From contig CAYNHV010000001.1 of NCBI GenBank assembly GCA_964397315.1, positions 12,367-76,366 of the forward strand: a DNA stretch of 64,000 nt, given 5' to 3'. This document shows, in pieces, positions 28,016-64,000 of the stretch. Source of the DNA: an uncultured Methanosarcinales archaeon (GTDB lineage Archaea > Nanobdellota > Nanobdellia > Woesearchaeales > UBA12501). Below the pieces are notes generated by a model, which was not told the DNA's origin, searched no databases, and saw only the letters and a list, made by a program, of their open reading frames with translations. The stretch's first letter is position 1; each line of letters starts with the position of its first letter. The position numbers were made by a program, and so were the translations under genes.

Positions 28016-28039
28016 TTTGGAAGCTAATCTGGAAGCTGC

Positions 28040-47525: not shown

Positions 47526-48489
47526 GCTGGAAGGAAAGAGTGTGCTTGTGATAGGTGGAGCGGGATTCATAGGAAGCCATGTTGTGGCTGAACTGCTGAA
47601 GGAGCCTGTGAAAGAGGTCGTGATATATGATAATTTTGCTAGAGGAAGATATGAGCATATCAACAAGCTGCTGAAGGACAGCAGATGCAGGCTCTTTGAG
47701 GATGGAGGAGATATAAGAGACATTGATGTTCTGGATGCTGCAATGAAGGATGTTGACTATGTGATACACCTTGCAGCAATGTGGCTGCTCCACTGCAAGG
47801 ATTACCCACGAACAGCATTTAACGTCAATATTGAGGGCACTTTCAATGTTCTTGATGCCTGCGTCAAAAACAAGATAAAAAAGCTTGTGTATTCTTCATC
47901 AGCATCGGTATATGGCACTGCTGTTGAGGTGCCTATTAAAGAAAGCCACCCTTTCCTCAACAAGAACTTTTATGGGGCCACAAAAATAGCGTCAGAGGCG
48001 ATGTGCACAGCCTTTTATGACAGGTACGGCCTGGATTTTGTAGGATTAAGATATATGAACGTGTTCGGGCCGCTGCAGGACCAAAAAGCAGTTTACACAG
48101 GAGTAATACCAGTTATGCTGAACAAGATAGAAGAGGGAAAAGAGATAACCATAAATGGTGATGGCTCACAGGCCTATGACTTCATCTATGTAGAGGATGT
48201 TGCCAGGGCCAATGTATGCGCACTGAAGAGCGACGCAACAGATGACTTCTTCAATGTTGGATCAGGGATCAGGACAACAATAAAAGATCTCGCAGAGAAT
48301 ATACTCAAACTGAAGGGATCAGAGCAGAAGATAAGGTTCATTCCCTACAGCGAGGGGGATGCAAGATCTCTAGTACAGGACAGGGTGGGATCAACAGAGA
48401 AAGCTGAAAAAGAGCTCGGGTTCAGGCATAAGTATTCTCTTGAGGAAGGCCTGAAGAAGCTTATTGGGTGGAGAAATAAAGCAAAATAG
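47512..48489 (+). CDS. NAD-dependent epimerase/dehydratase
   Basis: 'VLVIGGAGFIGSHV', 'YGATK'. 325 aa. Confidence 0.85.
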   Translation: MMANKLEGKSVLVIGGAGFIGSHVVAELLKEPVKEVVIYDNFARGRYEHINKLLKDSRCRLFEDGGDIRDIDVLDAAMKDVDYVIHLAAMWLLHCKDYPRTAFNVNIEGTFNVLDACVKNKIKKLVYSSSASVYGTAVEVPIKESHPFLNKNFYGATKIASEAMCTAFYDRYGLDFVGLRYMNVFGPLQDQKAVYTGVIPVMLNKIEEGKEITINGDGSQAYDFIYVEDVARANVCALKSDATDDFFNVGSGIRTTIKDLAENILKLKGSEQKIRFIPYSEGDARSLVQDRVGSTEKAEKELGFRHKYSLEEGLKKLIGWRNKAK

Positions 48490-48504
48490 ATTAGGGGGAT
48501 TATA

Positions 48505-49935
48505 ATGAAAGTTTTTTTAGTAAGTCCACCACAACCAAAAAAAGATTTAGTATCAAACTTAAGTAAAGGGGAGGGTTTTATTTTACCTTATAGTTTGCTG
48601 TGTATTGCAACATACCTTAATTACAAGAAACACAAAGCTAAAGTTTTGGATTGTCCTGCAGAGCACATATCTAATAAAAATCTTTATGATATAATAAAAA
48701 AAGAGAAACCTGATGTGGTAGGATTAACAGCTTTTACTTTTACTATCCCAAAAGCATACAACGCTGCTGAAACTATTAAAAAGGCTTCACCAAACACTAA
48801 AGTAGCTCTAGGCGGCATTCACGCAAGTGTTCTTCCTATTCAATGTTTAAAGGAGTGCAGGCATATAGATTTTGTTGTTATTGGAGAGGGAGAGTATGTT
48901 TTTGAAAGATTATTAGAGGCTCTCGAAAAAAAAGGCGCTCTTTCAGAGGTTAGTAATTTAGCATACAGAGAAGGAAAAGCCCATAGATTAACAAAAAAAG
49001 AGCATATATTTCTAGATCCCAATAAATTGCCTCTTCCAGATTATAGCTTATTAAACATGGACAGGTATGTTCCTCACAGGGGAAATTATAAAGATTTACC
49101 ATGTTACAGTTTTTATACCAGCAGAGGGTGTCCTTTCCAATGTTCATTTTGCTCTGCCAATATAAATATGGGAAGAATGATCAGAAGGAAAAGCATAAAC
49201 AGGTGTATTAAAGAGATAAAAATTTTGGTTAATAAGTATGGGGCAAGAGGACTGATAATCCAAGACTCAACATTTACCATCCAGAAAGAGTGGGTAAGAA
49301 ACTTTTGTAAAGCTTTATTAAAAAATAATATCAGATTAAGCTGGAGAGCTAATACAAGAGCAGACTGTGTGGACCTGAAAACCTTAAAGTTGATGAAAAA
49401 AGCAGGATGTTATAGGATTAATGTTGGATTTGAATCTGGAAATCAAGAAACACTGGATTTTATAAATAAAGGGACTACTCTAAAGCAGAATAAAAGAGCA
49501 GCATATCTTGCAAGAAAAGCAGGTTTGCAGATAGGGTCATCCTTCATAATAGGGCTTCCTAATGAAGGGATGAAGGAGGTTATGAATACTATCAGGTTCG
49601 CTAAGGAAATAAAAGCTAAACATGCTCAGTTTTACCTTCCCATACCCTATCCTGGAACAAAACTCATGGATTTATGCAAAAAGTACGGAGGGGTAAGAGA
49701 AAATACAAGATGGGAAGATTTTGGCTCTAGAGATTTCAGCAATGCAGTATATATAAACAAAAACTTTGACAAAGAAACCTTTAAGAATCTGCCCAATATG
49801 GCATTTAGAAGATTTTATCTTGATCCTAAAACAGTAGCCAGACTTATTTTTACTATAGGAAGCTTTCACGAGTTAAAAGATACTCTGGGAACTCTTAAAT
49901 CAATAGCAAAAAAAGCCATATTTAACAGACTATAA
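48505..49935 (+). CDS. B12-binding domain radical SAM protein (class B radical SAM, methyltransferase-like)
   Basis: N-terminal B12-binding-like region and 'YTSRGCPFQCSFCS' (CxxxCxxC). 476 aa. This is the start of a visibly AT-richer segment. Confidence 0.8.
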   Translation: MKVFLVSPPQPKKDLVSNLSKGEGFILPYSLLCIATYLNYKKHKAKVLDCPAEHISNKNLYDIIKKEKPDVVGLTAFTFTIPKAYNAAETIKKASPNTKVALGGIHASVLPIQCLKECRHIDFVVIGEGEYVFERLLEALEKKGALSEVSNLAYREGKAHRLTKKEHIFLDPNKLPLPDYSLLNMDRYVPHRGNYKDLPCYSFYTSRGCPFQCSFCSANINMGRMIRRKSINRCIKEIKILVNKYGARGLIIQDSTFTIQKEWVRNFCKALLKNNIRLSWRANTRADCVDLKTLKLMKKAGCYRINVGFESGNQETLDFINKGTTLKQNKRAAYLARKAGLQIGSSFIIGLPNEGMKEVMNTIRFAKEIKAKHAQFYLPIPYPGTKLMDLCKKYGGVRENTRWEDFGSRDFSNAVYINKNFDKETFKNLPNMAFRRFYLDPKTVARLIFTIGSFHELKDTLGTLKSIAKKAIFNRL

Positions 49936-49936
49936 A

Positions 49937-50797
49937 ATGAAAATACTAGTTACAGGATCTTCAGGTTACCTAGGAAATGCTTTTATTAAACAATTTAAGG
50001 ATGAGCATGATATAATAGGACTTGACAGAGACAATAGAAAAAGAGATTATAAAAAAGTGCAAGGAGATCTCTCTAATTATAAGAAAATCATGAAAAATCT
50101 GGATGAGATAAAAGATGTGGACTGCATAGTGCATTTTGCGAGCCTTACTGATATAAAAGAGTGTGAAAAAAACAAAATGGCGGCTTTGGAAACTAATCTA
50201 ATGGGGACATGGGCACTTTTAGAGCATGGAAAAAGAGTGGGCATAAGAAAATTCATATACATCTCCACAGGAAGCATATATAAAAAAACAGAAAAAGAAG
50301 TGTCAGAAGAAGATGAAACAGAAGCTGATAACTTTTATGAAAGCACTAAACTTATGGCAGAAGAAATCTGCAAACAATATTCGAATAAATTTGATATAAT
50401 AATGTTAAGACCTTTTTTTCCTTATGGAAAAAACACCCATCCAAACAGATTGATAAATAAAATCATTCAGAATGTAAAAGATGGAAAGAGCATAATTCTA
50501 AATAGAAAAAATAAGCCAATTGTATCTCCAATATATGTAGATGACATGAGCAATGCAATAGATACCATAATAAAGAAGGACAAAGAAGAAAAAATTTCAA
50601 TATATAATCTTGCTGGCCCAAACGGATACTCCATAAAAGAGATTGCAGAAATAATTGGGAAAATAATCAATAAAAAACCAAAATACCAAAAAGGAAAGTC
50701 AGACTCCTCCAACTTCTGTGGTTCTGCAATAAGACTTAAAAGTTTAGGTATTAAATTGCATAATATAGAGGAAGGCTTAAGATTAACCATGGAATAA
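49937..50797 (+). CDS. NAD(P)-dependent epimerase/reductase (RmlD/short SDR-like)
   Basis: 'ILVTGSSGYLGNAF', a 'YESTK' YxxxK. 286 aa. Confidence 0.6.
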   Translation: MKILVTGSSGYLGNAFIKQFKDEHDIIGLDRDNRKRDYKKVQGDLSNYKKIMKNLDEIKDVDCIVHFASLTDIKECEKNKMAALETNLMGTWALLEHGKRVGIRKFIYISTGSIYKKTEKEVSEEDETEADNFYESTKLMAEEICKQYSNKFDIIMLRPFFPYGKNTHPNRLINKIIQNVKDGKSIILNRKNKPIVSPIYVDDMSNAIDTIIKKDKEEKISIYNLAGPNGYSIKEIAEIIGKIINKKPKYQKGKSDSSNFCGSAIRLKSLGIKLHNIEEGLRLTME

Positions 50798-50833
50798 GTT
50801 GGCAACATCAGCAGTATATAGTTTAAAAAGAAT

Positions 50834-52702
50834 ATGTGCGGCATAACAGGATTATTCAATTTTTCAGGAAGTGCGGCTTCTGATGATGTAATCAAGAGCA
50901 TGACAGATGCCATAAAGCACAGGGGACCTGACGGCGAAGGTTTCTTTAGGGAAGGGAATATGGCTTTAGGCCACAGGAGGCTCTCTATAATAGACCTCAG
51001 TGAGAAAGGCAGCCAGCCCATGAAAGATGAAAACGCCTCTGTTATAATAGCATATAATGGTGAGGTTTACAATTTCAAGGATATCAGGAAAGAGCTTAAG
51101 GAGAAAGGCTATGATTTCAGGTCAGAAACAGATACAGAGGTTGTCCTTTATGCATACAAGGAGTGGGGCATCTCATGCATAAGAAGATTCAATGGAATGT
51201 TCGCTTTTGCATTGTGGGACAGGAAGAATAAAAAGGGCTATCTTGCAAGGGACAGGTATGGGATAAAGCCCCTCTATTATTACAAGGATGGGGAGAAGCT
51301 TGTCTTTGGGTCTGAGATAAAAGCCATACTTAAACATCCTGAAATAAAGGCAGATCTGGACTACAAGGCCCTCAAAGAGTATTTCACATTCCAGAATGTG
51401 CTGTCAGACAGGACCCTCTTTAAGGGAATAAGACTTATGGAGCCAGGCAGTTACATAGAATTCGGGCCTGAGACATTCAACAAGGAAAGATATTGGGATT
51501 ATGATTTCATCTCAGGAGAGCTAAAGCTTCAAAAAAAGGAGATAATAAGCAAGCTCAGGGAGATATTTGAAAGAGCTGTTAGGAGGCAGATGGTGAGTGA
51601 TGTGCCTGTCTCCAGCTATCTGAGCAGCGGGATGGACTCATGCTCAATAGCAACTGTTGCCTCCGGAAACACTGAAAACATGAGAACATTCACAGCAGGC
51701 TTTGACATGAGGGGGGTATCAGGTTTTGAGAATGATTTTGATGAGAGAGAAAAAGCCAGGATAATGGCAGAGCATCTTTCCACAGAACATCATGAGACAG
51801 AGGTAAGCTCTGAATTCATGGAAAAATCCATGGAAACCCTTGTTTACCATATTGAGGATTTAAGGATGGGAATGAGCTTTCCTAACTATGCTGTGGCAGG
51901 TCTTGTGTCAGGCCATAACAAGGTTGTGCTGGCAGGGACAGGAGGTGACGAGCTTTTCTGCGGCTACCCATGGAGATATAACCATGCTGTGGGCAACAAA
52001 GACAGAGGGGAATACATCAGGAATTATTATGGACTCTGGCAGAGGTTGGCAGGAGATGATGAGAAGCAGGAGATGTTCACGCAAGAAGCCTTAAGGATGA
52101 TGGAGGATTACGACACTTTTGAAGTGTTCAGGAAGGTTTTTGACAAAAAAAACATTGACCCAAATAATAACAGGGACTGTGTAAACAATGCGCTCCAGTT
52201 TGAAGCAAGAACATTCCTCCACGGTCTGCTTGTTATTGAAGACAAGATCAGCATGGCGCATTCCCTGGAGACAAGAGTCCCTTTTCTTGATAATGAGATG
52301 GTGGACCTTGCCATGAAAACACCTCTCAGTCTTAAGCTAAAGAATTATGAGAAGCTTATGAGAGCAGGGCCTGATGAAGCAGAGGCATTGAGAGGCAGTT
52401 ATGTTGAGTCCACAGACGGCAAGCTCATACTTAGGGAGGCCATGGAAGGGCTTATACCAGAGGAGATAGCCTTCAACAAGAAGCAGGGATTCTCTGCCCC
52501 TGTTGCAGAATGGTTCAGGAAACATAGCAGGAGCTATGTGGAAGATGTTTTGCTTTCAGAAAAAGCCTTAAATAGGGGCATATTCAACCCGGAATATGTG
52601 AGAAAAAGGCTGCAGGCCCATTTTGAGGGGAAGGAGAACAACAGGCTCCTCATATGGTCCCTGTTATGCTTTGAGCACTGGTGCAGGAGATGGTTGGATT
52701 GA
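50834..52702 (+). CDS. asnB: asparagine synthase (glutamine-hydrolyzing) family amidotransferase (WbpS-like candidate)
   Basis: Ntn 'MCGITG', 'GHRRLSIIDLS', PP-loop 'SSGMDSCSIA'. 622 aa. Confidence 0.85.
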   Translation: MCGITGLFNFSGSAASDDVIKSMTDAIKHRGPDGEGFFREGNMALGHRRLSIIDLSEKGSQPMKDENASVIIAYNGEVYNFKDIRKELKEKGYDFRSETDTEVVLYAYKEWGISCIRRFNGMFAFALWDRKNKKGYLARDRYGIKPLYYYKDGEKLVFGSEIKAILKHPEIKADLDYKALKEYFTFQNVLSDRTLFKGIRLMEPGSYIEFGPETFNKERYWDYDFISGELKLQKKEIISKLREIFERAVRRQMVSDVPVSSYLSSGMDSCSIATVASGNTENMRTFTAGFDMRGVSGFENDFDEREKARIMAEHLSTEHHETEVSSEFMEKSMETLVYHIEDLRMGMSFPNYAVAGLVSGHNKVVLAGTGGDELFCGYPWRYNHAVGNKDRGEYIRNYYGLWQRLAGDDEKQEMFTQEALRMMEDYDTFEVFRKVFDKKNIDPNNNRDCVNNALQFEARTFLHGLLVIEDKISMAHSLETRVPFLDNEMVDLAMKTPLSLKLKNYEKLMRAGPDEAEALRGSYVESTDGKLILREAMEGLIPEEIAFNKKQGFSAPVAEWFRKHSRSYVEDVLLSEKALNRGIFNPEYVRKRLQAHFEGKENNRLLIWSLLCFEHWCRRWLD

Positions 52703-52712
52703 ATGATAGGCA

Positions 52713-53297
52713 TCAGTCTATAGCAATCCTGTATGTGTTTTTGACCCTATCAATGTACCACTTATCTATAGAGAGTGTTGATGGATAGTTATATCTCTCA
52801 TCAACAGCAAAAATATTAACTTGCCCGAAAGAGGATGCTCTGTTATTGGACAGGTTAACAAATCCAAACCCTGCATAATAGTTTTTTCCGTCCCATTTCG
52901 GAAATGGCCTTGTAGGGGAGGTTAATGTCATGTACCATGTGCCGTTCCTATGCAGGGTTTTATAATAGTGAAAATCCCCCTGCAACACAAGATCTGTGTT
53001 GTACATTGCATTCCAGTGTTCAACAGTCCTGGCTTCAGTCTTACTCCATCCTATTGCCCTGCGTCCTTGGCTATCAAACAATACAGGGGGTTCGGATATC
53101 ATAATGAGAGTTTTGTTTCTATATTTCCTCAGATTATTTTTGATCCATTCCATCTGATTATCTGTTGGTTTGCCGCTGTGAAGTCCCACAGGATTTATCT
53201 CATTCCCGTTAACCACCATAAAATTATACTCGCCTACATTTGCCATAAAATTCCATTTCATGGTGGGAAATGTTCCGTTCTTTTTGGCCTCATTCAA
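52713..53297 (-). pseudogene. C-terminal fragment of a metallophosphoesterase (purple-acid-phosphatase-like), N-terminal metal-binding motifs absent
   Basis: 'LVLQGDFHYY' matches the GHxHxYER-type C-terminal motif. There is no GDxHG/GDxxDRG upstream, the in-frame upstream is closed by stops, and the only start is TTG. Confidence 0.4.
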
Positions 53298-53364
53298 AAT
53301 GTTTCTTTGGGAGTCAAAGAATACAGGCCTCCCAAATGCTTTTGCGTAAATGACCTCCTCCCCG

Positions 53365-53384
53365 ACCTAAAGGTCGGGGAATTA
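53365..53384. other. perfect 8-bp-stem hairpin CCCCGACC-TAAA-GGTCGGGG at the truncation point
   Basis: Palindrome read directly from the sequence. Confidence 0.5.
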
Positions 53385-53656
53385 AACCCCAGTGCTCACT
53401 ACACTCGCATTAGTGTTTTGGAGCCTCATTTTGCCCTTAGGGGCATTTTGAGGTTTTTAAATCTTCATCAAAATTACAGAAGAAGCATATTTCTAAATAT
53501 GGGCAAAACAGAGCTTGGTAATGCTTTTAAATGGCCTTTGGGATGTTTAGACTATTTTAAAAGAGGATTAAAGATAAACAATAATTTTATAAATGTGTGG
53601 TTTTAGATTATTTAAGTCCCGGAGGGGGTATTGAAGAGGGGTGTATATTTAGATAA

Positions 53657-54394
53657 ATGATAATTTTAACTTTTGACATGGACTGGGCACCTGATTGGAT
53701 TATGGAAGATATAGCTGACAGGCTGATTAAAAAAGAAATACCATCAACTTGGCTGGTGACCCATGAGACTCCTTTTATCAAGAAGTTATTAAAATACCCT
53801 TCTCTCTTTGATATAGGATACCACCCTGATTTCTTAAGAAATTCAATAGAAAAAAAAAGTGTTGATTCAATAATGAAAAAAATGAAGAGCATAATTCCTA
53901 GGAGAAACATCATAAGAACTCACTGCCTGTATCAGTATACTGACCTTTTAAGATATTTGTGTACAGACCATGATATACGAGTGGACCTTTCAGTCTATCT
54001 TCATCTGACTCAAGATATAAGATCTCATTTCCTGAATTGCAAGGACGGAAAAAAGCTTCTCAGAATACCTACTTTTTTTGAAGATGACCTCTTTTTTGGT
54101 GAAAACACAGATTGGGGCATAAAAGAGCTTGGAATAGAAAGGGAAGGGTTGAAAGTATTCAACTTTCACCCAATCCATATCGCCCTGAATTCAAAAGATT
54201 ACAGGGGATATAGCGAATTAAAAGAGGAAACGCATGATTTAAAACTTGTAAAAAAAGAGCAAATAAACAAGTTCTTTAATAATGAGAAAGGAATAGAATC
54301 CCTATTTAGTCAGTTAATTGAATTCATGGAGAAAAATAGAGATAAGGTTAAATCATTGCCTGATATTTCAAGAGAATTGGGAGTTAAAATATGA
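53657..54394 (+). CDS. hypothetical protein (possible polysaccharide-deacetylase-like fold)
   Basis: 245 aa; 'TFDMDWAPD', 'GYHPD', 'NFHPIHIALNS'. The family assignment is uncertain. Confidence 0.3.
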   Translation: MIILTFDMDWAPDWIMEDIADRLIKKEIPSTWLVTHETPFIKKLLKYPSLFDIGYHPDFLRNSIEKKSVDSIMKKMKSIIPRRNIIRTHCLYQYTDLLRYLCTDHDIRVDLSVYLHLTQDIRSHFLNCKDGKKLLRIPTFFEDDLFFGENTDWGIKELGIEREGLKVFNFHPIHIALNSKDYRGYSELKEETHDLKLVKKEQINKFFNNEKGIESLFSQLIEFMEKNRDKVKSLPDISRELGVKI

Positions 54395-55146
54395 GGCATG
54401 TAAATATTGATATAAATAAGAACCTGATTAAAGGATTAGGTGAAAATGATTTGTCTTTCCTTAAAAGAGTTTACTCAAAGAATATTAATAAATACAGAGA
54501 AAGAATTAAGATGATTGGATTTGAAGATAAAAACGCTGTGCTTGATGCAGGATGTGGTTTCGGACAGTGGCTTTTTTCCCTTGCAGATATGAACAAAAAG
54601 GTGGTTGGAATAGATTTTTCACAAGAGAGAGTTGATGTATGCAAGGAAATAGCACAAAAGAATAATATAAACAATGTTGAAGTGATTAAATCAAGCATAA
54701 CTAATACAGAATTGAAAGAAGAATCTTTTGATGCCATATTTAGTTATAGTTCAATCTATTTTACTGATTACAGAAAAACACTTAAAGAATTTTACAGGTT
54801 GCTTAAAAAAGGGGGAGTATTGTACTTCACGACCAATAGTTGGGGAAAGTATATATCTGATATCATCAATAATCCTTATCCAACCAGCGATTTTTATCCA
54901 AGATGGTATGCTATAAAGACAATATGGAATACATTCAAGAACAAAAGAGAAGGTTTCTCTATGGAAAACGGAGCCTTGGTTATGTCAAAAAAAAAGACTA
55001 AGAGAATAATGCAAAAAATAGGTTTTTATGATATAAGAATCGATTATGACGGCCACTTATGCACAAAAGACCGAGAACCGCTCCCTTTAGTTCCAGAAAC
55101 ATATATAGGCATGACTCATTCTTTTGAGGTGTTAGCAAGAAAATGA
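54391..55146 (+). CDS. class I SAM-dependent methyltransferase
   Basis: Motif I 'VLDAGCGFGQW'. 251 aa. Confidence 0.75.
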   Translation: MRHVNIDINKNLIKGLGENDLSFLKRVYSKNINKYRERIKMIGFEDKNAVLDAGCGFGQWLFSLADMNKKVVGIDFSQERVDVCKEIAQKNNINNVEVIKSSITNTELKEESFDAIFSYSSIYFTDYRKTLKEFYRLLKKGGVLYFTTNSWGKYISDIINNPYPTSDFYPRWYAIKTIWNTFKNKREGFSMENGALVMSKKKTKRIMQKIGFYDIRIDYDGHLCTKDREPLPLVPETYIGMTHSFEVLARK

Positions 55147-55958
55147 CATGCAACATCTTTTTCATAGTGGGTTGTAGCAGATCTGGCACCACAGCCCTGG
55201 TAAAAATTCTCAATACAGCAGTTAATGCAGAGGTGTTTACCGAACAGGAACCTAAACTCTGCATAAATGCAAGGATAAACTATGAGTTTGGAATGCCTCG
55301 CAGTAAAGATTACATAAAAGAAAGCAAGAGTAAGGCAATCAAGGCTACTCTCTCTAAAGGGAAAAAATATATGGATAAGAACCCTAATTATCTATTCTTT
55401 ATAGATGAACTGATGGCTAACTTTGATTGTAAATTCATTTTTGTTATCAGAGATGGGAGAGATGTAGTAAGAAGTGCTATGGATTATGATGAGTATGGAA
55501 AGAATCTTTACAGAACATTTGAAGATGAAGATAACCCAAAAACAGTGCAACCTGAAGAAGATTTCTGGGATTTTGCAAGACTAAGGCCAAAAAAAACAGA
55601 TACTATATTTTATAGTTGGAAGAGTCTGACAAGATTTGAGAAAGCATCATGGTACTGGGCAAAATTCAATGGTCTGATACTTAAAAAGATAGAGAAGAAG
55701 GATAAAGACAGATTTATTACTGTGGATATCTCAAACATAAATCTAAAAGAAATTGAAAAAATATTCAATTTTGCAGGGCTTGAAGGATTTAATAGAGACA
55801 TAATAAGCAAAATGCTCAAAGAAAGAATCAACTCAGCACAAGAAAAGTGGGGCCTGAAAGATATCTTTCCAAAATGGGATAAATGGGATAATAATATGAA
55901 AGAATCGTTTAGCAGATATGCAGGACGCATGATGAAAAGATTAGGTTATAATAAATAA
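55143..55958 (+). CDS. sulfotransferase family protein
   Basis: 5'-PSB 'FIVGCSRSGTTAL' and 3'-PB 'VIRDGRDVVRSAM'. 271 aa. Confidence 0.75.
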   Translation: MTCNIFFIVGCSRSGTTALVKILNTAVNAEVFTEQEPKLCINARINYEFGMPRSKDYIKESKSKAIKATLSKGKKYMDKNPNYLFFIDELMANFDCKFIFVIRDGRDVVRSAMDYDEYGKNLYRTFEDEDNPKTVQPEEDFWDFARLRPKKTDTIFYSWKSLTRFEKASWYWAKFNGLILKKIEKKDKDRFITVDISNINLKEIEKIFNFAGLEGFNRDIISKMLKERINSAQEKWGLKDIFPKWDKWDNNMKESFSRYAGRMMKRLGYNK

Positions 55959-55990
55959 GGAGACAATTCGATAAGAGAAGGGGGCATGAT

Positions 55991-57598
55991 ATGGAAATAC
56001 TGTTTTTAGTTTTGGTTCTTGCTTTTGGATTGCTATTGAGACTTGCTTTTATAACAAAGGAAGGCACAGATTTATATGTCCATTTCTGGTTAATTAAAAA
56101 GCAGAAAGGAAGAAAATGGGTAAACTATGAGGTAGAAGACTCAATAGTCAAGGGTGTTAGGGCTTACCCAGTGCTTAACCATCTCCTAGTAAGCAAACTG
56201 CCTGAAAAATACTGGATTACAGCAGGAAAGGTATTAAACGCCTCTTATGATATAATAACAGCCGTGCTTGTTTATATCACTGCGAGATTTGTAAATTTAG
56301 AGGGAGGGTTTTATTATAGTGTTGCAGGAATTAGCCTGCCATTGATTTGCACATTTGTATTCTTGACCCTCCCAGTTCTTTTGCCTTCAAGTGCTCGGAT
56401 GAGAACAATAGGGGGAAGGTCCATGGGGCTTCTTTTTGTTTCATTATACTTTGTCAGCTTGGGAGCGGGATATTTAATACACCCAGTCTATTTTTTTCCC
56501 TCTGTGATATTCGGTCTCCTTGCGATACTCAGCTCTAAGTTTGGTTTCCAGACCATCCTTTTATTTTCTTTTTTTCTGGCTTTCATCAAGCTTTCGGTTA
56601 TCCCTTTGATTATTACGACTATCCTGATTATAATAGCTTATACTTTTCCGAAATTAGGGGCATGGACAATAATAAAACACTGGTGGGATCACAGGATATG
56701 GTTCTTCAATAACTATGAGAAGTGTACAGCTTCAGCAGGAAGAAATAATATAAAAGATATACTATTTCTTCCGGTATACTTATTCAGAGACAGAAAAAAA
56801 TTCATCATGCAGTGCTATTTCAAGATTACACCATTAATGGCATTGAGAGTCGTCCCTGTTGTCGTTTTCCTTATCATAATAAGGTTTTTTTACCCTGGTA
56901 TCTGGTCAATAATTCAGAGTAATAGTTATCTGCTATTCTCCTGGGATATAACTGTTGCCTCAATATTCTCCTTCATATTAACTTCAATATATGTTTTTAA
57001 GGGTATGGGAGAAGCTGAAAGATATTTTGAGTACAGTTCTCTCTTCTACTCCATCATATTCCCATTTATAATTTTTAATATCTCTAAGTCAAGAGAAGAT
57101 ATATTATTCTCTGTTCTTTTGCTACAACTTGTGATTATATTATCACACCTTCTGGTTATAAATTATAACAAGCTTGTTGATTCTGAGACGATGATACCCA
57201 AGAACATGAAAGAGGCTGTTGAATGGATTAGGAATAATGTAAGAAAAAGCAATATATTGACGGTTCCCTGTAAACTTTCAGTAGTCTTATCATCCAATGC
57301 AGATAAGGATAACCTCAATAAATTCTATTTTAGGTTTATCATGACGAAAAGAGGGGGTCTAGATTACTTTGAAGAGGACACAGGGGGATACCATTATTCA
57401 CCAGTAAACGGCCTCATGAGATCTAATGAAGTTTTTAGTTTAACTCCCTATGAGATGAAAAGAAAATATAAAGCAGATTATATTGTTGTGGAAAAGAAAT
57501 ATTTTGAAGGTTTAAAGAAAACATTGGGAAAACAAGGCATAAAGTTCCTAAAGAATCCTGTTTTCGAGAATGGGAACTTCCTGATTTATAAGCTTTAA
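55991..57598 (+). CDS. polytopic membrane protein (putative glycan polymerase / GT-C-like)
   Basis: 535 aa with >10 hydrophobic segments, located inside the glycan cluster. Confidence 0.4.
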   Translation: MEILFLVLVLAFGLLLRLAFITKEGTDLYVHFWLIKKQKGRKWVNYEVEDSIVKGVRAYPVLNHLLVSKLPEKYWITAGKVLNASYDIITAVLVYITARFVNLEGGFYYSVAGISLPLICTFVFLTLPVLLPSSARMRTIGGRSMGLLFVSLYFVSLGAGYLIHPVYFFPSVIFGLLAILSSKFGFQTILLFSFFLAFIKLSVIPLIITTILIIIAYTFPKLGAWTIIKHWWDHRIWFFNNYEKCTASAGRNNIKDILFLPVYLFRDRKKFIMQCYFKITPLMALRVVPVVVFLIIIRFFYPGIWSIIQSNSYLLFSWDITVASIFSFILTSIYVFKGMGEAERYFEYSSLFYSIIFPFIIFNISKSREDILFSVLLLQLVIILSHLLVINYNKLVDSETMIPKNMKEAVEWIRNNVRKSNILTVPCKLSVVLSSNADKDNLNKFYFRFIMTKRGGLDYFEEDTGGYHYSPVNGLMRSNEVFSLTPYEMKRKYKADYIVVEKKYFEGLKKTLGKQGIKFLKNPVFENGNFLIYKL

Positions 57599-57612
57599 TA
57601 AATATATAACCA

Positions 57613-59088
57613 GTGGTTAATATGCAAAAAAACAGAATATCTCTTAAAAGAAACCTGATTTATGCTCTGTTCACCAATGCTTTTGTGGCTTTTATGGGGT
57701 TTCTTTTTCATGTGCTGATAATCAGGAATGTCAGCAAGGACTTGTATGGCCAATATTCCTATTTCATCAGTTTGTCATTGATATTTATTGCCCTTTCAAA
57801 CATGGGTTTGACAGGATATTATCTTGTTAATTCATCCAAAAGGAGAAAAGACATGAGTAAAAATTACTATAAAAGTATCTATTTAAGGAGTTTATTAGTA
57901 ATAATTGTTTCTCCTGTATTCTTAATAACATTCATCTTGTTAGAAAACACCCTCAATCTGATATTTTTAACGGTGCTTGCTTTTGTAATATCTGAGAGTT
58001 TCCTCAGAGGAACAATGATCGTTTTTCGCTCACAGGAGATGATCAAATACTGGTCCATAAACCAGGTCTTTTATTATTCAGCGAAATTTCTGCTTTTTTT
58101 CATATTTATTTACATAGTGGATTGGAGTTCGCTTTTATTGTTTCTTTTCCTAACGCTAACAAACACATTGCTCACTCTTTTAGTTAATAGCATATTGAAA
58201 AGAAAACTATTAAGGGTTTCTTTGAGAAAGCTCATTTTAGTTGCAAAAAAAGTTTCTGTAAAGCGCGAAATAAAGAGAATTGTGCCTTTTACATTATTTC
58301 AGGTTTTTTTTATTATGTTCTATAAAGTTGATGTTATAATGATTTCAAAGATGGTGTCTGATTCCGCCGTAGCGTTGTACTCCTCTGCTTTCCTTATAAT
58401 TCAGGCTTTAATCAATGTATCAAAAAGCATTTCAATAGCCATCGCTCCAAGATTTGCTCTTTATTACGAAAAATCAGAGAGAAAAAGATTAGACGAATTG
58501 ATTAACAAATTAATCCCCCTTATTCAGTACACAAGTTTTTTGATATTAGGAATAATATTGGTTTATGGTTGGAAAATAATAATCTTGATATTTAGCGAGA
58601 GATATTCGGATGCCGCAGGCATATTATCAATATTGATATTCTCTTTTTTTCTTATATTTTACCATGACCTTTTCGCCATATTGATGAACAATACAGGACA
58701 TGAATCTTATGCCACTTTATTCTATGGGATAGCTATGGCCATAAATATAATTCCAAACTTTGTGCTTATACCATTGTGGGGTGCGAAAGGAGCCGCAATA
58801 GCAACTGTTGCTGCATTTACTTTTCTGGCTTCTATATCATATATATACACACTAAGAAAGATAACTAATAAAATGGTCTTTTTCAGAAGATTTTTTATAT
58901 TCTCCATTATAACAGCAATTACATATCTTATCTGCAACCACTATTTCAAACAAGAGCTATTCCTTGGAGTAGCAGTTTTTGTTTCAATTTATACGTTATT
59001 GAGTATCATCCTTAAAGTATTTCCAGAGGAAGGTTTTAAGTTTATTAGAGGTATGATAAAAAGTATATCAACAAGAGCTAATAGATGA
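57613..59088 (+). CDS. MOP-superfamily polysaccharide flippase (Wzx-like)
   Basis: 491 aa with ~12-14 TM segments. The N-terminal 'LIYALFTNAFVAFMGFLFHVLIIRNVSKDLYGQYSYF' pattern is typical of Wzx/RfbX. Confidence 0.6.
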   Translation: MVNMQKNRISLKRNLIYALFTNAFVAFMGFLFHVLIIRNVSKDLYGQYSYFISLSLIFIALSNMGLTGYYLVNSSKRRKDMSKNYYKSIYLRSLLVIIVSPVFLITFILLENTLNLIFLTVLAFVISESFLRGTMIVFRSQEMIKYWSINQVFYYSAKFLLFFIFIYIVDWSSLLLFLFLTLTNTLLTLLVNSILKRKLLRVSLRKLILVAKKVSVKREIKRIVPFTLFQVFFIMFYKVDVIMISKMVSDSAVALYSSAFLIIQALINVSKSISIAIAPRFALYYEKSERKRLDELINKLIPLIQYTSFLILGIILVYGWKIIILIFSERYSDAAGILSILIFSFFLIFYHDLFAILMNNTGHESYATLFYGIAMAINIIPNFVLIPLWGAKGAAIATVAAFTFLASISYIYTLRKITNKMVFFRRFFIFSIITAITYLICNHYFKQELFLGVAVFVSIYTLLSIILKVFPEEGFKFIRGMIKSISTRANR

Positions 59089-59097
59089 GGCAGCATA

Positions 59098-60381
59098 TTG
59101 ATGAAAAGAATGTTCAATTATGTAAGAAATATAAACAGATTTAATGAGATTATAGTTCTCCTGTTTTTAGGTGTTCTGTTAGGAGTTGCTAGCTTCTTTG
59201 GTTTTCAAATGGTGTGCACTATCCTACTCTTTATTATTTTGCTTATGATAATTTGGAGAACAAAAAATAAGATCGTTATTGCTGCTTTTTTGATTCGTGT
59301 TGCCATACAACTCATGAATTATAGTTTCTCCATACTTGAGCCCAAAGGCACTTCAGTAGGTTACATGACAATTCTTGAAAGAGCGCGTTTTTCTTTGCTC
59401 ACACAAGGGGACCTTTCCAATGTCTTCTACCAGTCAGGATCATCCAGCTTCCCATACCTTATCCTGCTCTATCCCTTTGCTGTAATCTTCGGAGCATTCA
59501 TAATAAACTTCTTCATAATCAACTCTTTCCTGGGAGCCCTTGCAGTATTCAATGTCTTCAGGATCTCAGACAGGGTTTTCGGCAAAAAAACAGCAATCAT
59601 CTCCTCTCTAATTTTTTGTTTCTCCCCTTATATAGCCTACATGAATGGCGTTTTCTCGAGAGATCCTTTAATCTTACTAATAACTACTCAGATAATCTAC
59701 CTTCTTGTGGATATGGCAAAAAAGAACACGCTCAGACCATCAATATTTGTATTCCTGGGGCTGCTCTTCTTCCTGAGAGTGGAATCATTGCTCATAATAG
59801 CATTTGGCTTTGTAGCTTACAAGTTCATCCAGATAAAGGATATCAGGAAGAACGTACTGCTGATAGCCGCAGCTGTTATCCTTGTCATTTTTCTTTTATC
59901 AAATCTCACAGTATATATGTTTCCAAGAGGTGACTCCCCTGTAAACACGCTTGATGAGTTCAGGGATTATCGGTCTCATGGAAGATCAGTGTATCTAAAA
60001 CACCATCAGTATAACACTCTTTTAGATATTGTGTATTATCTACCATCAAGGTTTGTCTATTTTGCATATTCTCCCCTTCCTCATCAGATAGAAAAGCCCA
60101 GGGACCTGCTCGGGCTTGTAGATAGCGCTATACTGATAATGCTTACGATTTTTGCCTTCCTGTCCAAGAAAACTATTTTAAGAGACAAACAGGCCCTCCT
60201 AATGCTTATAATACTCCTGACAGGATTTGCAGCAAGCTCCATAATAGAGGGAAATGTGGGGGCTGCAATGAGGCACAGGATGCAGTACTCATTCATATTG
60301 TACATCCTAGGCAGTTATTACCTGTCAAAACATTTAAAGATACCAGCATTAGACAGGCTTATTAAGAAAAGGATAATCTGA
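59098..60381 (+). CDS. polytopic membrane protein (Wzy/O-antigen-ligase-like candidate)
   Basis: 427 aa with multiple TM segments and a large loop. Confidence 0.35.
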   Translation: MMKRMFNYVRNINRFNEIIVLLFLGVLLGVASFFGFQMVCTILLFIILLMIIWRTKNKIVIAAFLIRVAIQLMNYSFSILEPKGTSVGYMTILERARFSLLTQGDLSNVFYQSGSSSFPYLILLYPFAVIFGAFIINFFIINSFLGALAVFNVFRISDRVFGKKTAIISSLIFCFSPYIAYMNGVFSRDPLILLITTQIIYLLVDMAKKNTLRPSIFVFLGLLFFLRVESLLIIAFGFVAYKFIQIKDIRKNVLLIAAAVILVIFLLSNLTVYMFPRGDSPVNTLDEFRDYRSHGRSVYLKHHQYNTLLDIVYYLPSRFVYFAYSPLPHQIEKPRDLLGLVDSAILIMLTIFAFLSKKTILRDKQALLMLIILLTGFAASSIIEGNVGAAMRHRMQYSFILYILGSYYLSKHLKIPALDRLIKKRII

Positions 60382-60383
60382 AA

Positions 60384-61322
60384 ATGGAAAGAATAAATGG
60401 AATAATCAAAAAATCAATTCCATCTTTTAAAAGAAGGCATTGGTCGTTTGTAGCAGATATAAAAGCAGGAGATAAAAAATTATTTTTGAAGATACCAAAA
60501 ATGGAGATGGATTTAAGTCTTAAAAAAAGTATGAACAGAAAAAAGAACATTGAACAAGGAATAATTGAAGCTAGAAACCATAAAAAAGCTGAAAGGATTA
60601 AGTTCTCAAAAGGATTCAAAGTTACAAAACTGAGAGAGTACGTCAAAAAGTACAACTGCTTAGTGTTTGATTTTGTTGAGGGGAATAATTTATACAAGGT
60701 CACTCTCAATAATAATCTGATAAGAGATCAAAATCTTGAAAGAGTATTTAAGATAATTGGTAAAAATTTACATATAATGCACAGAATACAGGTTAGTAAG
60801 AAAAACAGTAAGACAGTTGCGGAAGAGATAATGAGATATTCTAAAAGTTTGAAACTACACATTGATAAAAGAGTAATCCACTACTCAAAAAAACAGATTG
60901 TGAAATGCGCTCTCTCAGCAGAAGGTTTTGAAATAAGGAACTTTATCACAAATAATAGATGCATATATTTTTTTGACATTGGAGAGCTAAAAGAAGCTCC
61001 AGTTTATGAGAATTTAGCAAGATTTATTGTAAGCTCTAAAATAATATATTGGAACAAGCTTTTATTCCTTGCCAGATTGAAGATTAATAAAGCTTATAAA
61101 AAATCCTTTCTTAAAGGATACGGGCAGAAAGAAAATGAGCCCATGCTACAAATATTCATACTTAAAGAGCTTTTAAGATTCTATTATCATGCAATATTGT
61201 CTCTTAACCATAGAGTCAAAACACGGTCTATGAGAAAATTAATAAAGCGCTGTTATATCGACAGGTTTTATAAGAGAGAGGTGAACAAATGCCAAGAAAA
61301 AATAATAAATTTGATTACATAA
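60384..61322 (+). CDS. protein-kinase-like fold protein (LPS-kinase/RIO-like, divergent catalytic loop)
   Basis: 'LVFDFVEGNNLY' hinge-like segment and 'IRNFITNNRCIYFFDIGE' in the catalytic-loop/DFG position, with Asn in place of the usual Asp. Confidence 0.35.
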   Translation: MERINGIIKKSIPSFKRRHWSFVADIKAGDKKLFLKIPKMEMDLSLKKSMNRKKNIEQGIIEARNHKKAERIKFSKGFKVTKLREYVKKYNCLVFDFVEGNNLYKVTLNNNLIRDQNLERVFKIIGKNLHIMHRIQVSKKNSKTVAEEIMRYSKSLKLHIDKRVIHYSKKQIVKCALSAEGFEIRNFITNNRCIYFFDIGELKEAPVYENLARFIVSSKIIYWNKLLFLARLKINKAYKKSFLKGYGQKENEPMLQIFILKELLRFYYHAILSLNHRVKTRSMRKLIKRCYIDRFYKREVNKCQEKIINLIT

Positions 61323-61984
61323 AAGATACCAAATTAAAGTATCAGGATAAAGAATATGCAAGGAAATATCATTCAGAGTATTCTGGAAAGCTAAACTTAA
61401 GCCGCTTGAAGCATAAAATTGTAGCATATAGAGAAATTAAAATTGTTAGAGATTTGATAGACTCCATCAACGCAGGAAATAAAATCAGGATACTAGACAT
61501 ACCTTGTGGAACAGGAAAGCTTTTTCCTATTTTCCTGAAAAGAGGATTCTTGATATATGCGGCAGATATATCTAAAGAAATGCTATCATGCATACCAAAA
61601 GAACACATCAAACCTCAAGTAAAAGAGATAAAGACCCTAGATGCTACAAGAGTAGGTTACAAAGATGGGTTTTTTGAGATAGTAATCTGCCTTAGACTAC
61701 TTCACAGGGTGCCACATAAATTAAGGAAAAGAATAATTAAGGAATTGTCTAGAGTCAGCTCTTCTTACATAATACTCAGTGTAGGGGAGCTTCCTTTTAT
61801 TACCAAGATGGTTCATTCATTAAAAGAATTATTCCGTGATGGCAAAACATTGCCCTCACCTGCAACACACAATGAGATTTTGGATCTTGCAAAAAAGAAC
61901 AATCTTGTGATAAAGAAAAGAAAACCAGTGTTTAGGTTTTTGTCAACAGAACATATATATCTTCTGGAAAAATGTGCGGAATAA
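61289..61984 (+). CDS. class I SAM-dependent methyltransferase
   Basis: Motif I 'ILDIPCGTGKLF'. 231 aa. Confidence 0.7.
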   Translation: MPRKNNKFDYIKDTKLKYQDKEYARKYHSEYSGKLNLSRLKHKIVAYREIKIVRDLIDSINAGNKIRILDIPCGTGKLFPIFLKRGFLIYAADISKEMLSCIPKEHIKPQVKEIKTLDATRVGYKDGFFEIVICLRLLHRVPHKLRKRIIKELSRVSSSYIILSVGELPFITKMVHSLKELFRDGKTLPSPATHNEILDLAKKNNLVIKKRKPVFRFLSTEHIYLLEKCAE

Positions 61985-62160
61985 ACCTCATCTTGGACTT
62001 AAGCAACAGGAAAGATCTGAAAAGTCTTGTTTCCTCTATGAACAAGTGCATATCTTACAGGGGCCCTGACCCACAGGGAATCCTTTTGAAGGATAATGCA
62101 TCTTTGGGTCATCGCAGACTGTCCATCCTTGATATTTCAGAGAGAGGAACTGAAAGATAA
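61972..62160 (+). pseudogene. N-terminal 62-codon remnant of an asparagine-synthase (AsnB) gene
   Basis: 'MCGINLIL...YRGPDPQGILLKDNASLGHRRLSILDISERG' parallels 'MCGITGLF...HRGPDGEGFFREGNMALGHRRLSIIDLSEKG' of the gene at 50834, then stops. Confidence 0.6.
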
Positions 62161-62291
62161 GTTTTAAAATCAATGGAAAATGAGATTAGGAAACTTTACA
62201 GGAGTTATTCCAAAAACAGAGAGGATGACTCAAAGAAGCTCTGGAACGTTTATGTGCTTTCAAAATGGCTGGAAAAGAACAGGATAGAACC

Positions 62292-64000
62292 ATGAAAATC
62301 CTTCACATCATAACAAAGCTTGAGGTTGGCGGGGCCCAGCAGAACACAATATACACTGTTGAGCACCTTAATAGGCAGGAGAATGTTCATTCTGAGATAA
62401 TCGCAGGCCCCATTGTCAGCAGGAAGAACCTGATGAAGAACGCAAGGGACAGGGGCATAAATGTCACTGTAATAAAAGGCATAACCAATGAGATAAGGCC
62501 TATAAAAAACCTCACAGCCATGCTGAAAGCCTACAAGCACATAAGAAAAGGAAGGTTTGACATTGTCCACACCCACTCCTCTGTTGCAGGAATAATAGGC
62601 AGGATTGCTGCAAGGCTGGCAAAAACACCAGTAATAATACACACAGTGCATGGCTGGGGTATCAGGCCTGACCTTCCAAAGTGGAAGCTGAAGATATACA
62701 TTCTCCTGGAAAGGATCTGCGCCAGATTCACACACAAGCTCATAACAGTCTCAGAGAGGGACATAAGAAAAGGCCTAAAAAACAGCATAGGAAAGAAGAG
62801 CCAGTACACTGTAATAAGAAGCGGGATTGACATCAGCAGATTCTCAAAAAATATAAACAAGGAAAAGAAGAAAAAAGAGCTTGGCATTGACCCAAAAAAG
62901 CCTGTAGTAGGCATGGTAGGAAGGCTTGACAAGCAGAAGAACCCTCTTGACTTTGTGAGAGCAGCCTCAAAAGTGCAGAAAAAGCATCCAGAAGTCCAGT
63001 TCATCATAGCTGGGGACGGGCCTCTGAGAAAGCAGACAGAATCCCTAATAAAAAAACTGAAAGTAAATAATTTCCACATACTGGGATTCAGGGATGATGT
63101 TAATGAAATCATCCAGATTTTAGACATCTCAGTCCTGACCTCCCTCTGGGAGGGCCTGCCAAGAGTGTTTCCAGAGTCAATGGCTGCAAAAAAACCAATC
63201 ATTGCAACAGATGTTGACGGAGCAAGAGAGGCAATAATCAACAGCAAAAACGGCTTCATAACACAGCCTAAAAAGCCGGAGCAGACAGCAGAAAAAATAT
63301 ATTTCCTCCTGCAGAATCCCAAAAAGGCAAAGAAAATGGGAGAAAATGGCTTTGCAATGGCTGAAAAGTTCTCCCTGAAAACCATGCTTAACAAATTATA
63401 TGAGTTATATCAGAGACGGCAAAAAATGTCTGGAATAAAAGAAAGTTTTATACTTAAAGATAGACCTGCATTACGTAATGCATTGTTCAAGATATTTCAG
63501 ATAATTAACATCACAGCCAGAAAATGTTTTATACCTCTTATAGGATACAACTCATCAGAAAAAATAGTGTCAGAGAGATACAGATTCGTCTGCATAACAA
63601 TACCCATTTGTGGAAGGACCACTCTTCTTGACCTTTTCAGAAATTATTTTGATGATTTTTACATAACAAAAAAGCCTCTCAGCAGATTACTAAAAAGAAA
63701 TCCAGAGTATAACAATTACTTCAAGTTCACAATAATCAGGAACCCCTGGAGCAGAACAGTATCGTGCTATAACAAAAGGGTAGTTAATATCAATGCGTTA
63801 AAAAAGGTTTACCTCCTGAGCAGGTTTAAAGGATTAAACCCAAATATGACATTCAAGGATTTCATAAGATGGCTTAACACAAAGGAGGGTAGTGACGAAA
63901 GAGCTGACAAGCACTGGAAGTCCCCCCATAAATTTCTCATGGATGGTAATGGTAAGATAAGATGTGATTATGTGGGAAAGCTAGAAAGTTTAAGCAGTGA
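62292..64000 (+). CDS. GT4 glycosyltransferase fused in frame to a Sulfotransfer_2-like (carbohydrate sulfotransferase-like) domain; 3' end beyond the window
   Basis: 'MKILHIITKLEVGGAQ' and 'EGLPRVFPESMAAKKPIIATDVDGAREAI...NGF' mark the GT4 part. From ~63430 the sequence reads 'RFVCITIPICGRTTLLDLF' and 'FTIIRNPWSRTVSCYNKR' (5'-PSB/3'-PB-like). No stop occurs between the domains in my reading. Confidence 0.65.
   Translation, partial: MKILHIITKLEVGGAQQNTIYTVEHLNRQENVHSEIIAGPIVSRKNLMKNARDRGINVTVIKGITNEIRPIKNLTAMLKAYKHIRKGRFDIVHTHSSVAGIIGRIAARLAKTPVIIHTVHGWGIRPDLPKWKLKIYILLERICARFTHKLITVSERDIRKGLKNSIGKKSQYTVIRSGIDISRFSKNINKEKKKKELGIDPKKPVVGMVGRLDKQKNPLDFVRAASKVQKKHPEVQFIIAGDGPLRKQTESLIKKLKVNNFHILGFRDDVNEIIQILDISVLTSLWEGLPRVFPESMAAKKPIIATDVDGAREAIINSKNGFITQPKKPEQTAEKIYFLLQNPKKAKKMGENGFAMAEKFSLKTMLNKLYELYQRRQKMSGIKESFILKDRPALRNALFKIFQIINITARKCFIPLIGYNSSEKIVSERYRFVCITIPICGRTTLLDLFRNYFDDFYITKKPLSRLLKRNPEYNNYFKFTIIRNPWSRTVSCYNKRVVNINALKKVYLLSRFKGLNPNMTFKDFIRWLNTKEGSDERADKHWKSPHKFLMDGNGKIRCDYVGKLESLSS

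Follow-up and report, generated by a model that had tools for sequence, protein, structure and literature searches.

Does a single archaeal gene encode both the transfer of a sugar to a glycan and the sulfation of that glycan? This question is raised by the 3' end of a 64,000-nucleotide stretch of DNA (referred to here as the window; contig CAYNHV010000001.1 of assembly GCA_964397315.1, from an uncultured Methanosarcinales archaeon), where an open reading frame (ORF) starting from the ATG at position 62292 leads from a family 4 glycosyltransferase (GT4) into a domain resembling carbohydrate sulfotransferases. Our analysis indicates that this frame probably encodes a single polypeptide of 635 amino acids, in which an N-terminal GT4 module is joined head-to-tail to a C-terminal Sulfotransfer_2 module of the type dependent on 3'-phosphoadenosine 5'-phosphosulfate (PAPS), and that the gene belongs to an island for sulfated glycan synthesis.

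Positions 62292-64000 of the forward strand comprise 569 codons and, upon translation, no stop. The gene had been suggested to run off the window, and indeed it does. On a longer Logan contig (SRR7048227_71105, 6,741 nt; locus L001), which is 100% identical to the window over the 3,729 nt that they have in common (60272-64000), the ORF is complete at 635 amino acids, and its stop codon lies at the window-equivalent position 64199. The gene caller gives the fusion in that record as a single gene with GT4 and Sulfotransfer_2 domains, and the same 635-residue protein (P0004) is recorded for a 154,853-nt NCBI contig. A continuous frame from one domain to the other was the core of the original prediction. 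In the region most relevant to it, 63400-63440, the codons read ...TAT CAG AGA CGG CAA AAA ATG TCT GGA..., giving R-Q-K-M-S across the junction, and neither a stop codon nor a frameshift is present; the frame is intact in the window as well as in the longer contig.

The N-terminal module (amino acids 1-378; 62292-63425, plus strand), delimited by Pfam matches and by its standalone orthologues, is a glycosyltransferase of the GT-B, retaining type. It matches Glyco_transf_4 (amino acids 12-183; 63.7 bits versus a cut-off of 28.5) and Glycos_transf_1 (amino acids 190-353; 149.6 bits versus 26.4, E 8.5e-44), and contains the EX7E motif EGLPRVFPE (E287...E295; amino acids 287-295, nucleotides 63150-63176) together with a GRLDKQK stretch at 62919-62939. 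The EX7E stretch is retained in ten aligned orthologues (the column of the first Glu not being displayed), with the second Glu replaced by Gln in P0010. Standalone orthologues P0005-P0013 (375-394 amino acids, 55-70% identity) have the full-length GT4 fold and motifs in common with the fusion protein. No NCBIfam equivalog reached its cut-off for this half; the best one was TIGR03088 (stp2), with 166.6 bits versus 409, and resemblance to BshA, MshA and PglH was likewise below threshold. Because the resemblance to named GT4 enzymes is sub-threshold only, neither the donor nor the acceptor can be named. The GT4 half is complete and conventional, and is predicted to transfer a sugar from a nucleotide sugar.

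The C-terminal module (Sulfotransfer_2, PF03567) occupies 63426-64000 of the window on the plus strand (amino acids 379-569) and extends to 64199 (amino acids 379-635) on the longer contig. The profile match covers amino acids 425-568, scoring 48.7 bits when the whole ORF is searched and 52.3 bits with only its C-terminal part (cut-off 22), the part of the sulfotransferase contained in the window spanning just positions 4-183 of the 252 in the profile. PF03567 is also listed for the complete 635-residue protein in the Logan record. Profiles of both Glycos_transf_1 and Sulfotransfer_2 thus scored above their curated Pfam cut-offs, in agreement with the domains proposed initially. Two motifs had been likened to the 5'-phosphosulfate-binding (5'-PSB) and 3'-phosphate-binding (3'-PB) sites of Golgi carbohydrate sulfotransferases. 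Profile alignments place both at these very positions in the family: FVCITIPICGRTTLLDLF (amino acids 432-449, nucleotides 63585-63638) in the 5'-PSB region and FTIIRNPWSRTVSCYNKR (amino acids 479-496, nucleotides 63726-63779) at the 3'-PB motif. For the former, the likeness holds in position but not in canonical sequence, as the loop reads IPICGRTT (63600-63623), and Ile (PICGRTT) takes the place of Lys in P-K-x-(A/G)-(S/T). The latter, R483-N-P-W-S-R488-T-V-S491, is intact. In the alignment of 143 close Sulfotransfer_2 relatives used for all conservation counts (138 sequences at the column of the 5'-PSB Lys), the columns of R483, R488 and S491 are conserved in 140-142 of 143. Also present is His541, a candidate catalytic base in the D-x-H-W-x-S-Q motif, which lies inside ADKHWKSPH (63903-63929) in a column occupied by His in 140/143.

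An AF2 model of amino acids 379-635, built from a 53-sequence alignment, was confident throughout (mean predicted local distance difference test, pLDDT, 91.6; predicted template modelling score, pTM, 0.88). When it was compared with the PDB by Foldseek, the best matches were cytosolic and heparan-sulfate sulfotransferases (probability up to 0.99, template modelling score about 0.4). A P-loop PAPS-sulfotransferase fold is therefore what the model predicts for the C-terminal half. No close solved structure was found in the PDB, where the family profile reached HS6ST/HS2ST only at E about 0.04-0.05; the corresponding alignment covers exactly the PSB and PB motif regions. No membrane segment was predicted in the fusion protein, the maximum 19-residue hydropathy being 1.36. 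A membrane anchor in amino acids 379-425 was also considered and was ruled out by hydropathy; AF2 gives two helices there. This half would be expected to transfer sulfate from PAPS to a carbohydrate hydroxyl, and the role in PAPS-dependent transfer gains contextual support from the adenosine 5'-phosphosulfate (APS) kinase and CysQ-like genes of the window, which are described below.

The designation of this domain as eukaryote-type is not supported. Golgi sulfotransferases of PF03567 (CHST8-14, HS2ST) and HS6ST share with it the Pfam model and the equivalent positions of the PSB and PB motifs. However, membership in the Golgi group was rejected, since the protein has no type II anchor, its nearest kin are not CHST or HS2ST, and the PDB matches to such enzymes are as weak as stated above. 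The closest relatives are standalone and bacterial where named: nearly all are metagenome proteins, of about 250 amino acids, and the few named ones come from Glaciecola, Paraglaciecola and a cyanobacterium. P0001 (258 amino acids, 55% identity) and the Glaciecola and Paraglaciecola proteins have the same domain, length and 3'-PB motif as the fusion half, and standalone prokaryotic proteins of the family share with it the H-W-x-S motif and a C-terminal R-Y-x-x-D-I motif. Many of their genes are located in polysaccharide clusters, some of them directly after a GT4 gene. These relatives are encoded by separate genes for about 200-300 amino acids, whereas the domain described here is in frame with GT4. 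In a 2024 review, archaeal PF03567 proteins were stated to be uncharacterised (PMC11625862).

How the two modules are joined can be read from the junction itself (63421-63428, plus strand; ..Q-K / M-S..), composed of a run of six adenines (A6, 63421-63426) and the ATG of Met379 (63426-63428). The last A of the run is the first base of the sulfotransferase's own start codon, and there is no linker. The ten closest aligned GT4 proteins (53-70% identity) are standalone and all end 2-12 residues past the ..LY motif; where they terminate, the fusion protein reads ...LYELYQRRQK and runs on into the sulfotransferase. The stretch from Met379 (MSGIKESFILKDRPALRNALFKIFQ...) aligns with the N-termini of standalone sulfotransferases (amino acids 379-430). 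Since GT4 orthologues end and sulfotransferase N-termini start at the junction, one complete gene abuts another without a linker. If the run consisted of five adenines (A5), the GT4 frame would end as ..RRQKCLE*, overlapping a separate sulfotransferase gene that starts from the same ATG. The fusion gene contains 13 other A6-A7 runs, all of which leave the frame unbroken. Ahead of Met379 no strong Shine-Dalgarno-like motif was seen, while several other listed gene starts have one; the absence of a good ribosome-binding motif fits translation of both modules as one chain.

Base composition changes at the same point, between the two halves: GC content is 43.0% overall and 50.5% at third codon positions (GC3) in the GT4 half versus 34.8% and 37.7%, respectively, in the sulfotransferase half, the housekeeping genes of the window being close to 50% GC. 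P0001, the closest relative of the sulfotransferase, is encoded by a standalone gene whose GC content is 24.6% and whose upstream region is AT-rich and non-coding. In two loci carrying GT4 orthologues (L005 and L006), the GT4 gene also stands late in a comparable glycan cluster, as the fusion gene does, and there is no sulfotransferase-like sequence in either of them. Directly upstream of the fusion gene, an internally deleted asparagine-synthase-like (AsnB-like) pseudogene was detected by tblastn (61972-62290, plus strand). Its first 61 amino acids (MCGI...) are 43-48% identical to intact AsnB-like N-termini, and are followed by a stop and a weak C-terminal remnant; it marks a rearrangement at this end of the cluster. 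On the other side, an AbiEii pair (3915-5386 of L001, minus strand) starts right after the fusion gene and overlaps its 3' end by 14 nt. The partner in this pair (254 amino acids) has no Pfam match and is antitoxin-like from its position only. The AbiEii/AbiEi-like pair fills the gap before an AglH-like gene, and the counterpart stretch in L005 consists of epimerase genes. Taken together, the junction anatomy, the break in GC content, the orthologous loci devoid of a sulfotransferase, the AbiEii pair and the AsnB-like pseudogene indicate a rearranged cluster end.

One plausible scenario would begin with a resident GT4, the last glycosyltransferase of the host's surface-glycan cluster, directly behind which a low-GC, foreign sulfotransferase gene was placed. 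The GT4 stop codon would then have been lost, for which a single-nucleotide change in the poly-A run overlapping the sulfotransferase start codon is the simplest route, and the sulfotransferase's own N-terminal helices would now serve as the connector. The fusion is probably lineage-specific and recent, made of two ordinary domains, and it probably arose through the trivial loss of a stop codon. The possibility that orthologues have the fusion in common was ruled out, all nearby GT4 orthologues and Sulfotransfer_2 relatives being standalone.

An exhaustive HMMER search of 1.84 billion cluster representatives, with the C-terminal sulfotransferase region as query, returned 1,485 relatives at E <= 0.001. 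Among the best 150 of these, whose domain architecture was inspected, GT4 combined with Sulfotransfer_2 was found solely in the query's own protein, and nearly all others were standalone proteins of 200-300 amino acids. In a profile search of a 5.8-billion-protein set there were 52 matches, every one standalone. None of 80 metagenome loci encoding sulfotransferase relatives, scanned with GT4 and sulfotransferase profiles built in this work, has both domains in a single frame. A GT4 gene is located immediately upstream of the Sulfotransfer_2 gene, on the same strand, in five of these 80 loci, and immediately downstream in four. The five upstream neighbours are unrelated GT4 proteins (25-29% identity); their stop codons are followed after 3-110 nt (3 nt in L014) by the first Met of the sulfotransferase ORF. 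In 65 viral loci we found neither a nearby GT4 gene nor a fusion; viral contigs carry distant Sulfotransfer_2 relatives only (22-31% identity), and there was no sign of a viral origin.

Other glycosyltransferases have been fused to Sulfotransfer_2 domains. P0194 (Capsule_synth, GT2 and Sulfotransfer_2; 1,068 amino acids) as well as P0262 and P0263 (GT25 and Sulfotransfer_2) likewise have an N-terminal glycosyltransferase and a C-terminal sulfotransferase, the latter 32-37% identical to that of the fusion protein. Their glycosyltransferases are of the GT-A type (GT2, GT25), in contrast to the GT-B type GT4 considered here, and the events were independent. Sulfotransferase-sulfotransferase tandems also occur among longer relatives. 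A further protein from a metagenome, P0190 (600 amino acids), has Sulfotransfer_2 at 384-599, preceded by about 380 amino acids with no Pfam match; a GGFADRFKGL-type motif in that region recalls, as we take it, fucosyltransferase-like glycosyltransferases, and the protein may be another, unrecognised fusion of this kind. The architecture had been regarded as unusual. This view is justified insofar as no second GT4-Sulfotransfer_2 fusion was found, and has to be moderated insofar as fusions with GT2 or GT25 and unfused GT4-Sulfotransfer_2 neighbours exist. Judging from the sequences compared, the glycosyltransferase-Sulfotransfer_2 fusion as an idea is not new to sequence space, and its GT4 version was seen only here. 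The repeated adjacency of GT4 and Sulfotransfer_2 genes, together with the other fusions, makes a functional partnership of glycosyltransferases and sulfotransferases a recurrent theme. In the literature searched we found no paper describing a glycosyltransferase-sulfotransferase fusion; the single match, on the Aeromonas O-antigen, concerns separate genes.

The earlier domain-level reading was correct, but it overlooked the island around the gene, which is linked to AglB and contains PAPS genes and two more sulfotransferases. The window is archaeal, as judged from an A-type ATP synthase subunit A (ATP_syn_A_arch, TIGR01043; 960 bits), an SMC protein of the SMC_prok_A type (861 bits, above its cut-off) and STT3/AglB. 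According to Pfam scans, the fusion gene ends a co-oriented surface-glycan biosynthesis cluster of about 20 kb (43658-61984, plus strand). This cluster encodes a hexapeptide acetyltransferase, a DegT aminotransferase, a GFO oxidoreductase, a UDP-sugar dehydrogenase and two epimerases, and also a B12-radical-SAM enzyme, an AsnB-like amidotransferase, a WbmS-like protein and methyltransferases. WbpD/E/B/A-like enzymes for diacetamido uronic acids are among its products. Further Pfam matches in it identify a standalone sulfotransferase of the Sulfotransfer_1/3 type with a GCSRSGTT loop (55143-55958, plus strand), a Wzx-like flippase (Polysacc_synt/MatE; 57613-59088, plus strand) and a PMT_2-like membrane protein (59098-60381, plus strand). 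In L001, a Glycos_transf_4 gene for an AglH-like phosphosugar transferase lies 1.6 kb downstream of the fusion gene; its product is 50% identical to that of the AglH-like gene found about 3 kb downstream of GT4 in L005. The fusion gene is thus associated with Agl components, as AglB/STT3, the phosphosugar transferase and the flippase are all encoded in the same region.

A second group of genes is predicted from its domains to be a module for PAPS supply and recycling (27425-29750, minus strand), adjoining AglB and a sulfotransferase. It consists of an APS kinase (27425-28015, minus strand; Pfam APS_kinase 223 bits, NCBIfam apsK 190 bits), a 304-residue protein in which an NMNAT-like nucleotidyltransferase is fused to an APS-kinase domain (28040-28954, minus strand; APS_kinase 180 bits), and a CysQ-like protein of the inositol-monophosphatase family (28947-29750, minus strand; Inositol_P 189 bits). 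Between this module and AglB there is a third sulfotransferase, of the Sulfotransfer_1/3 type with a GCPRSGTS loop (30261-30893, plus strand; Sulfotransfer_1 44.7 bits, Sulfotransfer_3 39.3 bits), and next comes the STT3/AglB-type oligosaccharyltransferase (31147-33354, minus strand; Pfam STT3 84.7 bits, NCBIfam archaeo_STT3 weak). Given the PAPS genes and the sulfotransferases, the window holds what PAPS-dependent glycan sulfation needs, bar a recognisable ATP sulfurylase. In the fused APS kinase, the N-terminal 125 or so amino acids resemble NMNAT/cytidylyltransferase enzymes, with an HxGH motif (FIGRWTPFHKGHLAIM), and a full APS-kinase domain follows. The window showed no canonical ATP sulfurylase, so this small NMNAT-like domain might supply the sulfate-adenylylating step.

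If the fusion protein is active, it would act at the cytoplasmic face of the membrane, as GT4 enzymes of comparable clusters do, since it has no membrane-spanning segment, and its substrate would be a lipid-linked oligosaccharide of the dolichol-phosphate type. The GT4 half would attach a sugar taken from a nucleotide sugar, and the sulfotransferase half would move sulfate from PAPS onto that sugar or onto a neighbouring one. PAPS would be provided by the APS kinases, whose genes lie 35 kb upstream, while the CysQ-like phosphatase would clear the by-product, 3'-phosphoadenosine 5'-phosphate (PAP). Once complete, the glycan would be moved across the membrane by the Wzx-like flippase, and AglB would then most likely transfer it to protein, a polymerase pathway being less likely. 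The fusion would fix both activities at a 1:1 ratio and couple consecutive steps. We propose, tentatively, that the protein is a bifunctional enzyme acting on a lipid-linked precursor of an archaeal N-glycan, and that its sulfotransferase half comes from a natural subclade lacking the 5'-PSB lysine (about one-fifth of the closest relatives), which transfers sulfate without this residue.

Several observations weigh against a single bifunctional enzyme of this kind. The junction sits in a slip-prone A6 run, the fusion architecture forms a cluster with one member, and the NCBI and Logan records may stem from the same reads, in which case they would not be independent. Within the sulfotransferase half, the 5'-PSB Lys is Ile (a residue found once in this column among 138 sequences, compared with 104 occurrences of K and 29 of L), the Q545 position is occupied by Pro (Q in 138/143), and that of K496 by Arg (K in 136/143). 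Because three near-invariant positions differ, sulfotransferase activity is not assured. The PAPS pathway is incomplete in the window, as it has no canonical ATP sulfurylase there, and the N-glycan destination is assumed solely from the presence of AglB 29 kb away.

The features of the junction would also be expected if GT4 and the sulfotransferase were two genes with overlapping stop and start codons, possibly translationally coupled, that were merged because the consensus has a one-base error, or reflects a minority or phase variant, at the A6 run. The absence of a linker, the sulfotransferase's own Met with its full native N-terminus, and the stop that A5 would create four codons past the run (..QKCLE*), a typical operon overlap, all agree with such an arrangement; so do the unfused GT4-then-sulfotransferase neighbours in 5/80 loci, 3-110 nt apart, and the failure of protein, metagenome-locus and viral searches, within the scopes given, to provide a second GT4-Sulfotransfer_2 fusion. 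On the other hand, A6 is present in both assembly records, which show no mismatch over 3.7 kb, and the Logan contig crosses the site. The gene's thirteen other A6-A7 runs are read in frame, and Met379 is not preceded by a good ribosome-binding motif. Moreover, consensus errors at 6-nt homopolymers are rare in short-read data, which would also speak against two genes if SRR7048227 is of that kind. We therefore consider two separate genes unlikely. It is also rather improbable, in our judgement marginally more so, that the fusion is real and its sulfotransferase half is not an active PAPS sulfotransferase, being instead a passenger in decay, a module that binds PAP/PAPS or a glycan, or an enzyme whose donor or chemistry has changed. 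The 5'-PSB lysine is generally held to be catalytically important in sulfotransferases, and its replacement by Ile, together with the substitutions of the near-invariant Q545 and K496, would be in line with inactivity; the domain also looks recently acquired, with a foreign composition, and gene decay has occurred nearby, the AsnB-like pseudogene being directly upstream. Nevertheless, Leu replaces the lysine in 29/138 close relatives, among them many of the nearest, and P0001 and P0127, the closest two of the relatives examined, also have the Q-to-P change. No substitution affects the 3'-PB Arg and Ser or the conserved His, confidence is high along the whole AF2 model, and 257 codons at 35% GC contain no internal stop. 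From these comparisons, the loss of Lys and the Q-to-P change resemble subclade traits maintained by selection more than they do random decay.

An active enzyme could alternatively serve a polymer that is not N-linked, such as an exopolysaccharide, a capsule-like layer or a lipid-linked glycan, rather than AglB-dependent glycosylation. We regard this as a possibility to be entertained, with no great confidence. It would account for the Wzx-like flippase accompanied by the PMT_2-like multi-pass protein, a possible polymerase or GT-C enzyme, and for the Wzy_C polymerase genes in orthologous loci; in addition, AglB is 29 kb from the fusion gene, and unrelated genes lie between them. However, AglB adjoins the PAPS genes and a sulfotransferase, and the gene for the AglH-like phosphosugar transferase follows the fusion gene. 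Archaeal N-glycans with 2,3-diacetamido uronic acids, the products of WbpABDE-like genes, are known in Methanococcus, and this too favours an N-linked destination.

It was shown by experiment that Agl30 and Agl31 of Halobacterium salinarum, proteins of the sulfatase/alkaline-phosphatase-like superfamily, are archaeal N-glycan sulfotransferases, and they are so far the sole ones established in this way (PMC11980604). They sulfate sugars of an archaeal N-linked glycan and are encoded in an aglB-anchored cluster, a role identical to that proposed for the fusion protein. Their fold is sulfatase-like, whereas a P-loop PAPS-sulfotransferase fold is predicted for the fusion, which is accompanied by APS kinases; because of these two differences its chemistry would be unrelated to that of Agl30/Agl31. 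The fusion protein was also considered as a member of the Agl30/Agl31 type and lacks an alkaline-phosphatase/sulfatase-like fold. In eukaryotes, DS-epimerase 2 combines an epimerase with an O-sulfotransferase domain (PMC13308652). This enzyme and NDST (N-deacetylase/N-sulfotransferase) are built on the same plan as the fusion protein, with a sulfotransferase domain attached to a modifying enzyme. They differ in that the partner is not a glycosyltransferase, in being Golgi membrane proteins and in being only remotely related in sequence, and they arose by independent fusions.

Both domains are ordinary members of their families, and the fusion is confined to one lineage. If it is functional, it would be a natural hard-wiring of sugar addition and sulfation in one chain, and a possible template for enzymatic or cell-based making of defined sulfated glycans. 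It would also pair one sulfotransferase with one glycosyltransferase, aiding the prediction of acceptors, which is hard for the Sulfotransfer_2 family. The island itself suggests that some archaea use the classical PAPS route to sulfated surface glycans. Should the proposal of a bifunctional enzyme lacking the lysine be true, this would be the first PAPS-dependent archaeal route to sulfated glycans, distinct from that of Agl30/Agl31, and a mechanistic variant of the sulfotransferase active site. The natural subclade with Leu in place of the 5'-PSB lysine (29/138 closest relatives in the P0124-P0271 alignment) raises a testable question about the sulfotransferase mechanism.

Some further features of the region were noted. 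Three sulfotransferase domains from two families are encoded within one 64-kb archaeal window. The cluster at 43658-64000 (plus strand) is a mosaic of alternating blocks, some with 29-35% GC and others with 42-45%. Those of low GC are 48505-50797, 53657-59088, 60384-61984 and the sulfotransferase half of the fusion gene, and 52950-53606 and 59098-60381 are intermediate (about 39%); such a pattern suggests repeated horizontal replacement of cluster modules. A separate AbiEii-toxin locus is present at 40480-42074 (plus strand), its partner having a weak AbiEi_4 match. No Pfam match was obtained for the ORFs at 138-2288 (minus strand, 716 amino acids), 55991-57598 (plus, 535), 60384-61322 (plus, 312) and 52950-53606 (plus, 218); the 535-residue one, the only one of them scanned against NCBIfam, had no match there either. 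Three of these ORFs fall within the glycan cluster and may encode proteins of glycan processing that have gone unrecognised.

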